Source of the DNA: a virus | Lineage: Duplodnaviria > Heunggongvirae > Uroviricota > Caudoviricetes | Length of the DNA: 7,924 bases | Reading direction: 5' to 3' (one strand) | Virus record (IMG/VR): IMGVR_UViG_2526164602_000016 | In this document: positions 1 through 5,685 of the stretch, one piece after another | Position numbering within the stretch: the stretch's first letter is position 1 | Layout: every line of letters begins with the position of its first letter | The notes under the pieces: generated by a model | The model's input: only the letters and a program-made list of their open reading frames with translations | Told to the model about the DNA's origin: nothing | Databases searched by the model: none | Program-made: the position numbers and the translations under genes

Positions 1-535
1 AATATCAGGCATACCCGATTGACGGCAGTGGCTTTGAGATGAACGGAAGGGCAGCAGTGCCAGACCGTCGCTGACGGTGTCGAATCTGTTTGGTCTGGTC
101 ACCGGGATGGCGGAGGACCTGCAGAGCCTGGTGGGGGCCACGGTGGTCCGCCGCCGGGTGTATGCCCGTTTTCTGGATGCGGTGAATTTTGTGGCAGGCA
201 ATCCTGAGGCAGACCCTGAGCAGGAGCTGACGGACCGGTGGGTGGTGGAGCAGATGTCATCGCTGACGGCCATGACGGCCTCGTTTGTGCTGGCCACACC
301 GACGGAGACGGACGGAGCGCTGTTTCCCGGTCGCATTATGCTGGCGAATACCTGTATGTGGACCTACCGCTCTGATGAGTGTGGTTACACGGGCGGGGCA
401 GTGGCGGATGAGTTCGACAACCCCACCACGGATATCCGTAAGGACAGATGCAGCAAGTGCATGCGCGGGTGTGAGATGCGCAGCATGGTGGCTAATTTTG
501 GCGGTTTCCTTTCCATTAATAAACTTTCGCAGTAA
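1..535 (+). CDS. L: Tail tip assembly protein L (gpL-like), 5'-partial, with an apparent 1-nt frame break near nt 45-50
   Basis: The frame-2 ORF (track 77..535, open from nt 38) translates to ...KGSSARPSLTVSNLFGLVTGMAEDLQSLVGATVVRRRVYARFLDAVNF...GGFLSINKLSQ, which matches my memory of lambda gpL residues about 67-232. Frame 2 has stops at 20-22 and 35-37, while frame 3 from nt 3 reads YQAYPIDGSGFEMNG, matching the preceding gpL segment. The GTG at 77 is an ORF-caller artefact, not the true start. Stop TAA at 533-535. Confidence 0.8.
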
Positions 536-545
536 ATCCCGGTTT

Positions 546-1289
546 ATGACACAGACTGAATCAGCGATTCTGGCGCATGCCCGGCGGTGTGCGCCTGCGG
601 AGTCGTGCGGCTTCGTGATAAGCACGCCGGAGGGGGAGTGGTATATCCCTTGTGTGAATATTTCTGCAGAGCCGGAGGCGTATTTTCGTATCGCACCGGA
701 AGACTGGCTGCGGGCAGAGATGCAGGGGGAGATTGTGGCACTGGTCCACAGTCATCCCGGTGGGCTGCCCTGGCTGAGCGAGGCTGACCGGCGGCTGCAG
801 ATAAAAAGTGCACTGTCCTGGTGGCTGGTCTGCCGGGGGGAAATTCATAAATTCCGCTGTGTGCCACATCTGACAGGACGGCGCTTTGAGCACGGGGTGA
901 CGGACTGTTACACGCTGTTCCGGGATGCCTACCATCTGGCGGGAATTGATATGCCGGATTTTGAGCGTGAGGATGACTGGTGGCGCAACGGTCAGAACCT
1001 GTACCTGGACAATATGGAGGCGACTGGTTTTTACAGGATTTCCCTGCCTTCCGCACAGCCTGGCGATATCCTGCTGTGCTGCTTTGGCGCATCGGTGGCC
1101 AATCATGCCGCCATATACTGCGGCAACGGTGAACTGCTTCACCATCTGCCTGAACAACTGAGTAAACGGGAGAGGTATTCCGAAAAATGGCAACGACGAA
1201 CGCATTCAGCCTGGCGTCACCGCCACTGGCACGTATCTGCCTTCACGGGGATTTACAACGATTTGGCCGCCGCCTCAGCCTGTATGTGA
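546..1289 (+). CDS. K: Tail tip assembly protein K (JAB/MPN metalloprotease-like domain plus NlpC/P60 domain)
   Basis: ATG at 546, 10 nt after the L stop. Translation begins MTQTESAILAHARRCAPAESCGFV... as in lambda K. A JAMM-type motif HSHPGGLPWLSEAD (H-x-H-x7-S-x2-D) is encoded at 747-788. The C-terminal half carries a conserved Cys (GVTDCYTLF) and a downstream His (NHAAIY), consistent with NlpC/P60. The track ORF 285..1289 is the same frame with an upstream extension that overlaps L and is not coding. Confidence 0.9.
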   Translation: MTQTESAILAHARRCAPAESCGFVISTPEGEWYIPCVNISAEPEAYFRIAPEDWLRAEMQGEIVALVHSHPGGLPWLSEADRRLQIKSALSWWLVCRGEIHKFRCVPHLTGRRFEHGVTDCYTLFRDAYHLAGIDMPDFEREDDWWRNGQNLYLDNMEATGFYRISLPSAQPGDILLCCFGASVANHAAIYCGNGELLHHLPEQLSKRERYSEKWQRRTHSAWRHRHWHVSAFTGIYNDLAAASACM

Positions 1290-2209: not shown

Positions 2210-2653
2210 ATGGGAAAAGGTGGCGGTAAGGCACACACGCCTCGTGAGGCGAAGGATAATCTCAAATCCACGCAGATGATGAGTGTGATTGATGCGATTG
2301 GTGAGGGACCGATAGAAGGTCCGGTGAAGGGACTGCAGAGTATTCTGGTGAACAAAACCCCACTGACGGACACGGACGGCAATCCCGTGATACACGGTGT
2401 GACCGCGGTCTGGCGTGCCGGGGAGCAGGAGCAGACACCACCGGAAGGCTTTGAGTCCTCCGGAGCTGAAACCGGACTGGGCGTGGAAGTGACGAAGGCA
2501 AAACCGGTGACGCGCACCATTACGTCCGCGAACATTGACCGCCTGCGGGTCACCTTCGGGGTGCAGTCACTGTTGGAGACCACCTCAAAGGGCGACCGTA
2601 ACCCCACGTCTGTCCGACTGCTGATTCAGTTGAGCGTAACGGTAAATGGATGA
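2210..2653 (+). CDS. J: Host specificity / central tail fibre protein J, N-terminal fragment ending at a frame break
   Basis: ATG at 2210 with an upstream GGGGAAGG Shine-Dalgarno-like sequence. Translation [39 protein letters not shown]... matches the lambda J N-terminus from memory. The frame ends at TGA 2651-2653 after ...[12 protein letters not shown], whereas the homologous continuation ([11 protein letters not shown]...) is in the -1 frame from about nt 2632. Confidence 0.85.
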
Positions 2654-5600
2654 CGGAAAAGGATGTCACCATTAACGGCAAGACCACCTCGCAGTTCCTG
2701 GCGTCGGTGATTCTGGATAATCTGCCGCCCCGGCCCTTTAACATCCGGATGGTCAGGGAGACGGCGGACAGCACCACGGACCAGCTGCAGAATAAGACGC
2801 TCTGGTCGTCATACACCGAAATCATCGATGTGAAACAGTGCTACCCGAACACGGCGATTGTGGGGCTGCAGGTGGATGCGGAGCAGTTTGGCGGTCAGCA
2901 GATGACGGTGAACTACCATATCCGCGGTCGCATCATCCAGGTGCCGTCAAACTATGACCCGGAAAAACGCACGTACAGCGGCATCTGGGACGGCAGCCTG
3001 AAACCGGCATACAGCAACAACCCGGCCTGGTGCCTGTGGGACATGCTGACTCACCCGCGCTACGGCATGGGAAAACGCCTGGGGGCGGCGGATGTGGACA
3101 AGTGGGCGCTGTATGCCATTGCGCAGTACTGCGACCAGACGGTCCCGGATGGTTTCGGGGGCACAGAGCCGCGGATGACTTTCAATGCGTACCTGTCACA
3201 ACAGCGTAAGGCGTGGGACGTTCTCAGTGATTTCTGCTCGGCGATGCGCTGTATGCCGGTATGGAACGGGCAGACGCTGACGTTTGTGCAGGACCGTCCG
3301 TCAGATGTGGTGTGGCCCTACACCAGCAGTGATGTGGTGGTGGATGATAACGGCGTGGGGTTTCGCTACAGCTTCAGCGCCCTGAAGGACCGCCACACGG
3401 CGGTGGAGGTGAATTACACCGACCCGCAGAACGGCTGGCAGACCTCCACGGAACTGGTGGAAGACCCGGAAGCCATACTGCGCTACGGACGCAACCTGCT
3501 GAAGATGGATGCGTTCGGCTGTACCAGTCGCGGTCAGGCCCACCGTGCCGGGCTGTGGGTGATAAAGACCGGACTGCTGGAAACGCAGACGGTGGATTTC
3601 ACGCTCGGGTCACAGGGGCTGCGTCACACACCCGGTGACATTATTGAAATCTGTGATAACGACTATGCCGGGACCATGACCGGCGGACGTATCCTGTCCA
3701 TCGATGCCGCCAGCCGCACCCTGACACTGGACCGTGAGGTGACCCTGCCGGAGACCGGTGCCGCCACGGTGAACCTGATTAACGGCAGCGGTAAGCCGGT
3801 GAGCGTGGCCATCACTGCACACCCCGCGCCGGACCGGATACAGGTCAGCACCCTGCCGGATGGCGTGGAGACATACGGTGTGTGGGGGCTCTCCCTGCCG
3901 TCACTGCGCCGTCGCCTGTTCCGCTGTGTCTCCGTCCGGGAAAACACGGACGGCACCTTTGCCATCACGGCGGTGCAGCACGTACCGGAAAAAGAAGCCA
4001 TCGTGGATAACGGGGCGCACTTTGACGGCGACCAGAGCGGCACCCTGAACAGCGTCATCCCTCCGGCAGTGCAGCACCTGACGGTGGAGGTGAGTGCAGC
4101 TGACAGCCAGTATCTGGCGCAGGCGAAATGGGACACGCCGCGGGTGGTGAAGGGCGTGCGCTTCAGTCTGCGCCTGACCAGTGGAAGCGGTCAGGACAGC
4201 CGTCTGGTGACCACCGCCATCACTGCGGATACAGAGCATCGTTTCAGTGGTCTGCCGCTCGGGGAATACACCCTGACGGTGCGGGCGATAAACAGCTATG
4301 GCCAGCAGGGTGAACCTGCCACCACCACCTTCCGGATTGCCGCACCGGCAGCACCGTCGCGGATTGAGCTGACGCCGGGCTATTTTCAGATAACCGCCAC
4401 GCCGCATCTTGCCGTTTATGACCCGACGGTACAGTTTGAGTTCTGGTTCTCGGAAAAGCGGATTGCGGATATCAGGCAGGTTGAAACCGCAGCCCGCTAT
4501 CTTGGCTCGGCGCTGTACTGGATAGCTGCCAGTATCAATATCAAACCGGGCCATGATTATTATTTTTATATCCGCAGTGTGAATACTGTTGGCAAATCGG
4601 CATTCGTGGAGGCTGTCGGTCGGGCGAGCGATGATGCGGAAGGTTACCTGGATTTTTTCAAAGGAGAAATCGGGAAAACACATCTGGCCCAGGAGCTGTG
4701 GACGCAGATTGATAACGGTCAGCTTGCGCCGGACCTGGCTGAAATCAGGACGTCCATTACGAATGTCAGCAATGAAATCACGCAGACCGTCAATAAAAAA
4801 CTGGAAAATCAGAGTGCGGCAATCCAGCAGATACAGAAAGTTCAGGTTGATACAAATAATAACCTGAACAGCATGTGGGCCGTGAAACTGCAGCAGATGC
4901 AGGACGGACGCCTTTATATTGCGGGTATCGGTGCCGGTATTGAGAATACGCCAGCAGGAATGCAGAGTCAGGTGCTGCTGGCGGCAGACAGGATTGCGAT
5001 GATTAATCCTGCGAATGGCAACACAAAGCCGATGTTTGTTGGTCAGGGCGATCAGATATTTATGAATGAAGTGTTCCTGAAATATCTGACGGCTCCCACC
5101 ATTACCAGCGGCGGTAATCCTCCGGCATTTTCCCTGACACCGGACGGGCGGCTGACGGCGAAAAATGCCGATATCAGCGGTAACGTGAATGCGAACTCCG
5201 GGACGCTCAACAACGTCACGATTAACGAGAACTGTCGGGTTCTGGGAAAATTGTCCGCGAACCAGATTGAAGGCGATCTCGTTAAAACAGTGGGCAAAGC
5301 TTTCCCCCGGGACTCCCGTGCACCGGAGCGGTGGCCATCAGGAACCATTACCGTCAGGGTTTATGACGATCAGCCGTTTGACCGGCAGATTGTTATTCCG
5401 GCGGTGGCATTCAGCGGCGCTAAACATGAGAAAGAGCATACTGATATTTACTCCTCATGCCGTCTGATAGTGCGGAAAAACGGTGCTGAAATTTATAACC
5501 GTACCGCGCTGGATAATACGCTGATTTACAGTGGTGTTATTGATATGCCTGCCGGTCACGGTCACATGACACTGGAGTTTTCGGTGTCAGCATGGCTGGT

Positions 5601-5685
5601 AAATAACTGGTATCCCACAGCAAGTATCAGCGATTTGCTGGTTGTGGTGATGAAGAAAGCCACCGCAGGCATCAGTATCAGCTGA
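2650..5685 (+). CDS. J: Host specificity protein J, main portion (1011 codons), in a different frame from the N-terminal fragment
   Basis: Long ORF with extensive similarity to lambda J, for example [115 protein letters not shown] and [36 protein letters not shown]. Homology in this frame actually begins about 18 nt upstream of the ATG at 2650. Stop TGA at 5683-5685. Confidence 0.9.

Follow-up and report, generated by a model that had tools for sequence, protein, structure and literature searches.

Phage lambda carries the tail genes L, K, I, J, lom and stf in this order, and the same order, L-K-I-J-lom-stfN-stfC, is found in lambdoid tail-tip modules of E. coli O157:H7, namely those of Sakai Sp12 and Sp15 and VT1-Sakai, the nleA-adjacent prophage of F8798 and the Stx1 prophage at yehV/btsS. 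Defects in such genes have been described within the O157 "defective prophage pool"; in Table 1 of that study, on strain Sakai, Sp12, Sp14 and Sp15 are listed with a defect in host specificity, and Sp6 and Sp14 with one in the minor tail (Asadulghani et al., 2009; PMC2669165). Defective O157 prophages are nevertheless packaged and transferred with the help of co-resident prophages (PMC2669165).

Here, we analyzed a stretch of 7,924 bp (the window), which is the entire contig AKLW01000035.1 of assembly GCA_000267165.1 from E. coli O157:H7 strain TW11039. Gene order and orientation, obtained from open reading frames and from tblastn against annotated relatives, are those of lambda, and the called genes match the Pfam families Phage_tail_L, Prok-JAB with NLPC_P60, Lambda_tail_I, Ail_Lom and Phage_fiber_C, the same families as in lambda, which identifies the window as a lambda-like tail-tip module (Table 1). 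Unlike lambda, it has a 342-nt spacer between I and J and a collagen-like stf. The O157:H7 modules named above show 95.7-98.2% identity over the window; in these relatives J is also broken by a 1-nt deletion, but at another site (CCC to CC at 3314-3316). If its lesions were real, the window would fit the defective prophage pool as a further lambdoid member, with minor-tail and host-specificity functions lost and its cargo intact; that pool was described from a finished genome with experiments, whereas the putative lesions considered here occur privately on a draft contig.

Table 1. Features of the 7,924-bp window (positions on the contig).
Feature	Position	Strand	Remarks
L (minor tail gene), 3' 536 nt, codons ~55-232	1..535	+	annotated L of L001/L002; tblastn
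L frame-break site	45..46	+	GG vs GGG (or GGA A) in relatives
K (tail-tip assembly protein, JAB/NlpC-P60 C40 peptidase)	546..1289	+	intact, 247 aa; tblastn and Pfam
I (tail assembly protein)	1286..1867	+	intact, 193 aa; tblastn and Pfam
I-J intergenic spacer with hairpins	1868..2209	.	separate from both lesions
J (host-specificity/tail-tip protein)	2210..5685	+	split 2210-2653 (147 aa) / 2650-5685
Patch around J break, 49 nt	2602..2650	+	diagnostic sites alternate between J allele families A and B
lom (Ail/Lom outer-membrane protein)	5753..6352	+	intact, 199 aa
Side tail fibre N-terminal gene (stf-N), collagen-like repeats	6417..7730	+	intact, 437 aa
Tail fibre C-terminal domain gene	7732..7924	+	cut by contig end, 64/89 codons present

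The first 163 nt of L fall outside the contig, and the called L product of 152 aa is the one that matches Phage_tail_L. Identical copies of the K protein were found on about 17-20 other contigs and of the I protein on 214 contigs. The J protein contains the Pfam domains FNIII-A_GpJ, Phage-tail_3, Ig_J, Phage_Tail_Tip and Ig_GpJ_C. The position of the I-J spacer is a moron insertion site, being occupied by sodC in some relatives; a known RNA family was sought in the spacer, and no match reached the gathering score, all being at noise level (E up to 1).

Tblastn with intact reference proteins detected exactly one break in L and one in J, and zero breaks in each of K, I, lom and the stf-like gene, and the pattern given in the preliminary description is therefore present in the deposited record. 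Relative to 17 close relatives, these two are the only indels private to the window. In L, 44 nt from the contig end, a G is missing at a position where at least 50 relatives have GGG. The upstream frame stops at a TGA (72-74), and the rest of the gene continues in frame 2 and stops at 533-535; by tblastn, residues 56-73 lie in frame 3 and residues 71-232 in frame 2. Here the deletion falls cleanly within a haplotype already known (mosaic cost 1). In J, which starts with the ATG at 2210, one base (C) is missing between 2632 and 2633, giving TTGAGC where relatives have TTGCAGC or CTTGAGC, and the site is not a homopolymer. The N-terminal fragment ends at a TGA (2651-2653), and an open frame from 2650 to 5685 covers the remainder. 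Were the frameshift real, the ATGA overlap of stop and start at 2650-2653 might allow J to be made in two pieces. Programmed frameshifting in J was also considered and rejected, a slippery heptamer being absent from the letters between 2633 and 2653.

Searches for the two lesions in other genomes showed that they were confined almost entirely to this contig. A 41-mer across the J break had no match in 5,426 complete E. coli genomes, and a 39-mer had none in the genome, viral or metagenome contigs of three contig collections; among 153 billion gene positions, both truncated products occurred only on AKLW01000035.1. The L break was found in two further stretches, both with many other homopolymer indels. 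The first belongs to O121 strain 16-9255, where 3 kb contain 37 gap positions that are almost all homopolymer contractions; the second, contig L003 of IMG/VR, carries three or more further private indels, two being of the homopolymer type, and past the first 195 nt its identity to the window is down to 91%. As a positive control, the same short-query test located the CCC to CC frameshift of J in 245 complete genomes at 464 places. This frameshift, at codon ~370, is carried by the closest relatives (L001, L002, L090 and L092), and J is annotated as frameshifted by PGAP in L001 and L002; the window is intact there. A genuine pseudogene lesion should be reproducible in independent related sequence, and neither the L nor the J lesion was; as expected of an artefact, both are private to one assembly, and no other credible sequence holds either of them. 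With 0 genomes against 245, searching complete genomes with a short query that spans the indel proved to be a fast, validated way to tell whether a frameshift is inherited.

The nature of the contig is relevant to these results. Its content is a tail-tip module only, its 5' end lies inside L and its 3' end inside stf-C, it has no unique flank, and it is linked to no single prophage or other prophage region. The module is present about 12 times per O157 genome with 90-98% identity between copies, and at 11-15 places per chromosome among the best-matching O157:H7 chromosomes listed. The combination of multi-copy DNA and missing unique flanks, which a repeat artefact would require, marks the window as an orphan repeat contig. 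The TW11039 assembly is a draft of 2012 in 71 contigs. The sequencing project used either Velvet with Illumina reads alone or Celera with Illumina and 454 reads, and its 71 contigs suggest that this draft is probably one of the Illumina and 454 hybrid assemblies.

Around the J break, alleles of two kinds alternate. Two families of J alleles were distinguished, family A (J of the L013 type) and family B (J of the 86-24 prophage and of L085). From 1379 to 3179 the window differs from L013 only at position 2503 and within the 49-nt patch, and from 2641 to 2933 (293 nt) it matches the family-B J of strain 86-24 at every base. Along the patch, the diagnostic sites read B B A B B A, then a common subsequence, then A A A B B; the common subsequence, at 2630-2633, is shared by TTGCAG and CTTGAG. 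Within the window, local mosaic cost peaks in the block holding the patch, at 7, which ranks second among 33 haplotypes, with the caveat that comparable patches also occur in complete-genome controls, one control block costing 8. About 17% of random deletions are likewise derivable from two alleles, and because of this base rate the common-subsequence signature is suggestive rather than statistically strong. Since family B is present in some O157:H7 strains, such as 86-24 and PA20, alleles A and B can reside together in one genome.

Taken together, these observations make it probable, in our judgment, that both 1-nt deletions are local consensus errors of the assembly and not mutations of the bacterium. 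An orphan repeat contig whose gaps occur in no other credible sequence points to local assembly error rather than to decay, and the errors appear local because one lies at a contig end and the other in a patch of mixed paralogues, the positions at which an artefact would be expected. At the level of the reads, we infer the following course. In L, coverage would be thin at the contig end, where reads from copies with GGGAAG and with GGAAAG could pile up. In J, family-B reads may have been recruited through the identical adjacent 293 nt and have overhung the divergent patch; a gapped alignment of TTGCAG and CTTGAG reads, with gaps called in both offset columns, would yield exactly the deposited TTGAG. 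Consensus errors from paralogue contamination or low coverage in draft repeats provide a parallel, as the window is likewise multi-copy throughout, with its lesions at a contig end and in an allele patch; it differs in that the error is deduced here from comparison instead of reads and that the global mosaic statistics are normal. An artefact is opposed by the position of the J deletion outside a homopolymer, by the correct length of the longer homopolymer runs, by the ordinary mosaic statistics and the 17% base rate, and by the frequency with which O157 prophages carry defective tail genes.

Real decay private to the strain, in which one lambdoid prophage of TW11039 lost a base in L and another in J while K, I, lom and stf stayed open, was the headline of the preliminary description, and we regard it as rather unlikely. 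The frequency of tail defects in O157 prophages speaks for it, as do the split J of VT1-Sakai and Sp12 and the frameshifts marked by PGAP in L001 and L002; complete genomes also hold unique mosaics, the long homopolymers of the contig are free of error, which indicates a generally good consensus, and the L lesion sits cleanly on a known haplotype. However, the breaks are private to an orphan contig of an old draft that can be tied to no one prophage, while the J frameshift of the relatives, which is real, recurs in 245 genomes. The L lesion lies close to the contig end, and the J lesion, instead of lying on a clean haplotype, falls where alleles are scrambled. In addition, two private frameshifts within 2.6 kb would need a long private history, which seems improbable in a clonal and densely sampled serotype. 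The headline is therefore not supported. The preliminary description had also held that decay and error were inseparable from sequence alone; comparative evidence does shift the balance, toward an artefact.

A variant of decay concerns J only: its frameshift could be real and have arisen in vivo by gene conversion between the J alleles of two co-resident prophages. A heteroduplex of TTGCAG and CTTGAG would contain two offset single-base loops, and repair removing both would leave a 1-nt deletion within a patch where the alleles alternate. We consider this improbable. If it were true, frameshifts would arise directly from recombination in the pool of O157 prophages wherever alleles differ by staggered substitutions.

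Two explanations extending beyond local error were also weighed. Systematic indel error across the assembly had been named in the preliminary description as the alternative to decay; error of a local kind is favored by our results, and the systematic kind is opposed by them. Systematic error, such as 454 homopolymer miscalls throughout the TW11039 draft, would be consistent with the use of 454 reads, if the assembly is a hybrid as the contig number suggests, and with the L lesion being a contraction of a G run that recurs in two stretches rich in homopolymer indels. Yet homopolymer runs of at least 5 nt (5-7 nt) agree in length with relatives in 36/36 testable cases, so assembly-wide error is not indicated, and no concentration of indels in long homopolymers was found in the contig; the only private indels are at one 3-nt run and one non-homopolymer site, and over stretches of 1.1-1.4 kb the contig matches other records base for base. 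The undercall of GGG is unlike what a simple 454 homopolymer error model predicts because the longer runs are all correct, and that model was rejected. We hold assembly-wide error to be very unlikely.

The idea that the whole contig is a chimera or collapsed consensus was abandoned, apart from the local patch in J, which was retained. The best match of the window is 98.0%, and such uniqueness was first expected to signal a chimera; a control module from the complete genome F8798 proved to be an equally unique mosaic (next best match 98.6%). Greedy exact-match segmentation divided the window into 48 segments and the controls into 24-166. Of the four regions examined for minimum-switch copying cost, three gave values equal or close to the median of the panel, and region 3200-4400 ranked 8th of 28; a scan of 150-nt blocks gave two high blocks for the window and 0-5 for the controls. 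As the window is no outlier in segmentation, switch cost or block scan, all statistics being within the range of copies in complete genomes, the global reading was rejected. The lom allele of the window was found on AKLW01000035.1 only; rare Lom and Stf alleles were tried as evidence of error and did not discriminate, many Lom alleles of the same cluster (90%) being on 1-6 contigs.

These results have consequences for how such frame breaks are followed up. The preliminary description had proposed that frameshifts be counted across the prophage and in housekeeping genes; frameshifts found in the prophage alone would not be a sign of decay, because consensus errors induced by repeats are restricted to prophage DNA as well, and a census of prophage-restricted versus genome-wide frameshifts cannot separate the two. 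Induction and plaque tests, also proposed, would not be decisive because co-resident prophages help defective ones and can complement their tail defects (PMC2669165). When a short orphan contig consists purely of multi-copy prophage DNA, frame breaks on it are not to be taken as decay, and this practical lesson is the weightier outcome. For the biology of O157 the stakes are small, and the finding is ordinary under either reading: if the lesions are real, they add one more defective prophage to those of O157, and if they are not, they are an error at the level of the record.

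By exact-protein look-up, the window corresponds to the complete contig AKLW01000035.1 (7,924 bp) of assembly GCA_000267165.1 from E. coli TW11039, an O157:H7 strain with a draft of 71 contigs (PMC3593324). Assemblies of that sequencing project were made either from Illumina HiSeq reads only with Velvet, or from Illumina and 454 reads (3-kb inserts) with Celera (PMC3593324); the paper names no hybrid strains, and we infer that the project's assemblies of 47-71 contigs, TW11039 included, are hybrids. The contig has no unique flanks, beginning 163 nt inside L and stopping within the fibre C-terminal gene, and the same module was found at 11-15 places per chromosome among the best-matching O157:H7 chromosomes listed, with up to 16 places per genome. 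The ORF map revealed a lambda-like tail-tip module, and the Pfam matches of the called genes were consistent with its assignments.

Features of the tail-tip module in contig AKLW01000035.1
Feature	Position	Strand	Source
L, 3' part	1-535	+	ORF map
K	546-1289	+	ORF map
I	1286-1867	+	ORF map
I-J spacer, 342 nt	1868-2209		ORF map
J	2210-5685	+	ORF map
lom	5753-6352	+	ORF map
Side tail fibre gene (stf), collagen-like	6417-7730	+	ORF map
Fibre C-terminal gene, start only	7732-end	+	ORF map

The minus strand of the I-J spacer carries a near-consensus sigma-70 promoter-like site (TTCACA-16-TATAAT, 2004 to 1977, 11/12) and, about 80 nt downstream, a terminator-like hairpin followed by T7 (1897 to 1881, T-run to ~1873). 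Judged by sequence, the two would fit a transcript of about 100 nt, which is probably the putative small RNA of the preliminary description. A second, two-way hairpin lies at ~2078-2109, no Rfam family matched the spacer, and two relatives (L085, the prophage of O157:H7 86-24, and L094) carry sodC on the minus strand at this position. Additionally, minus-strand ORFs of 286 and 261 aa (within 6640-7892) overlap the collagen-like repeats of stf, where AT skew is very high (0.46-0.57); most probably these ORFs merely result from the repetitive, GC-rich coding sequence.

Alignment of the window to L001 (the Stx1 prophage at yehV/btsS of an O157:H7 complete genome), L002 (a prophage adjacent to nleA) and 15 further relatives revealed exactly two private indels, each a deletion of 1 nt. 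In L, the window reads GG at 45-46 where the relatives read GGG (AAC GGG AAG GGC), and the upstream frame meets a stop at 72-74. In J, the break lies between 2632 and 2633, where the window reads CAGTTGAGCGT, family A (the J allele resembling that of the relative L013) reads CAGTTGCAGCGT and family B (the J allele of the 86-24 prophage) reads CAGCTTGAGCGT; the N-terminal fragment ends at a TGA at 2651-2653. This 147-aa fragment terminates in an ATGA overlap (2650-2653) with an in-frame ATG that opens the 1,011-codon remainder. A tblastn search with the intact 86-24 proteins located a single break each in L and J and showed K, I, lom and the N-terminal stf gene to be unbroken; the single-base losses in L and J and the integrity of the other genes, as first described, were thus borne out.

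Short queries spanning each deletion were designed so that megablast could seed only where the target has the same deletion. Among 5,426 complete E. coli genomes, the 41-mer of the J lesion had no match and the 43-mer of the L lesion had one, in O121:H19 strain 16-9255. The exact J pattern was absent from genome, viral and metagenome contig collections, the exact L pattern was absent from genome and metagenome contigs and present in one IMG/VR contig (L003), and the 147-aa J and 152-aa L fragments occurred on no further contig across 153 billion gene positions. Over 3 kb, the O121:H19 stretch (NZ_CP022407.1, 1591346-1594383) has 37 gap positions, almost all of them homopolymer contractions, which looks like uncorrected long-read error rather than decay; the annotation of this RefSeq "complete" genome marks H and L as frameshifted, and K seems to be truncated. 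L003 (IMGVR_UViG_2534681938_000012), a draft contig of 5,059 bp, matches window 1-195 exactly, L deletion included. Past these 195 nt identity falls to ~91%, and further private indels occur, namely a K frameshift (GGGGG to GGGG) and a +1/-1 pair in J. Outside the window, the L break occurs only where other homopolymer indels are numerous as well, and the window's own two lesions are private.

As a positive control, the same short-query test was applied to a different J lesion, a CCC to CC frameshift at about codon 370 that is common to the window's closest relatives (L001, L002, L090 and L092) and to L003; the window has no break there (3314-3316). The control lesion was found in 245 of the 5,426 genomes at 464 places, as many as 6 of them within a single genome, which demonstrates that a J pseudogene that is genuine and inherited is common to many genomes and readily detected. 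The several copies per genome suggest spread by gene conversion among co-resident prophages.

We consider that both breaks probably are local errors of the consensus, in an orphan contig that consists of repeat sequence. The sequence at the J break is not simply a known haplotype with one base lost: the window equals L013 (family A) over 1379-3179, except at 2503 and in a 49-nt patch (2602-2650), and equals the 86-24 J (L085, family B) over 2641-2933. The A/B-diagnostic sites in the patch read B B A B B A, break, A A A B B, and at the break the window is a common subsequence of both alleles. Since some O157:H7 strains have family B, a single genome can contain both alleles. Family B reads could have been recruited through the adjoining 293 nt of identity, their overhangs would perturb the consensus, and gap calls in both offset columns would yield TTG-AG. 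The block around the break has a local cost of 7, the highest in the window, and over 2560-2700 the window haplotype ranks 2 of 33, one or two events sufficing for 30 of the 33. The pattern fits such a mechanism, but it is suggestive and not decisive, because the base rate of two-allele derivability is about 17% and one complete-genome control block costs 8. In L, a clean deletion (cost 1) accounts for the break, which is situated 44 nt from the contig end. Elsewhere, a second small patch without an indel (5602-5786, the J 3' end and lom signal peptide) alternates between L001-like (1) and L002-like (2) alleles as 1111 2 1 2 1111, and yields a Lom N-terminus, MRKLYAAILS joined to AVVWQV, that was seen on this contig only.

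Real, strain-private decay, the headline of the preliminary description beside assembly error, is a distinctly less likely explanation. Tail defects are common among O157 prophages: in Sakai, Sp12, Sp14 and Sp15 have defective host specificity, and Sp6 and Sp14 have defective minor tail functions (PMC2669165), and J is split in VT1-Sakai and Sp12. However, the genuine lesion tested is common to 245 complete genomes, and two independent private frameshifts at a distance of 2.6 kb would require a long history private to the strain, an unlikely course for a serotype that is clonal and has been sequenced densely. Restriction of frameshifts to the prophage is confounded as a check, because repeat-induced errors are also confined to prophage DNA, and plaque tests are confounded because prophages can complement one another (PMC2669165). 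Systematic, assembly-wide indel error is improbable, since each of the 36 homopolymer runs of 5-7 nt that could be tested in the window has the same length as in relatives, and segments of 1.1-1.4 kb match other records base for base; on the whole, the contig is accurate.

That the whole contig is a collapsed consensus of paralogous copies was suspected because no complete genome exceeds 98.0% identity to the window, and was rejected as a global claim by controls. The module of the F8798 complete genome is equally unique (next best match 98.6%). Greedy exact-match segmentation gave 48 segments vs 24-166 in five complete-genome controls, the minimum-switch copying cost was at or near the panel median in three of four regions (8th of 28 in 3200-4400), and a scan of 150-nt blocks found 2 high-cost blocks vs 0-5 in controls. 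Rare Lom alleles are normal. The modules thus recombine often in nature, and a unique mosaic is no proof of anything in this case. The finding is ordinary under local error, decay and assembly-wide error alike; if the J lesion is true, the ATGA overlap could in principle permit coupled translation of a two-piece J.
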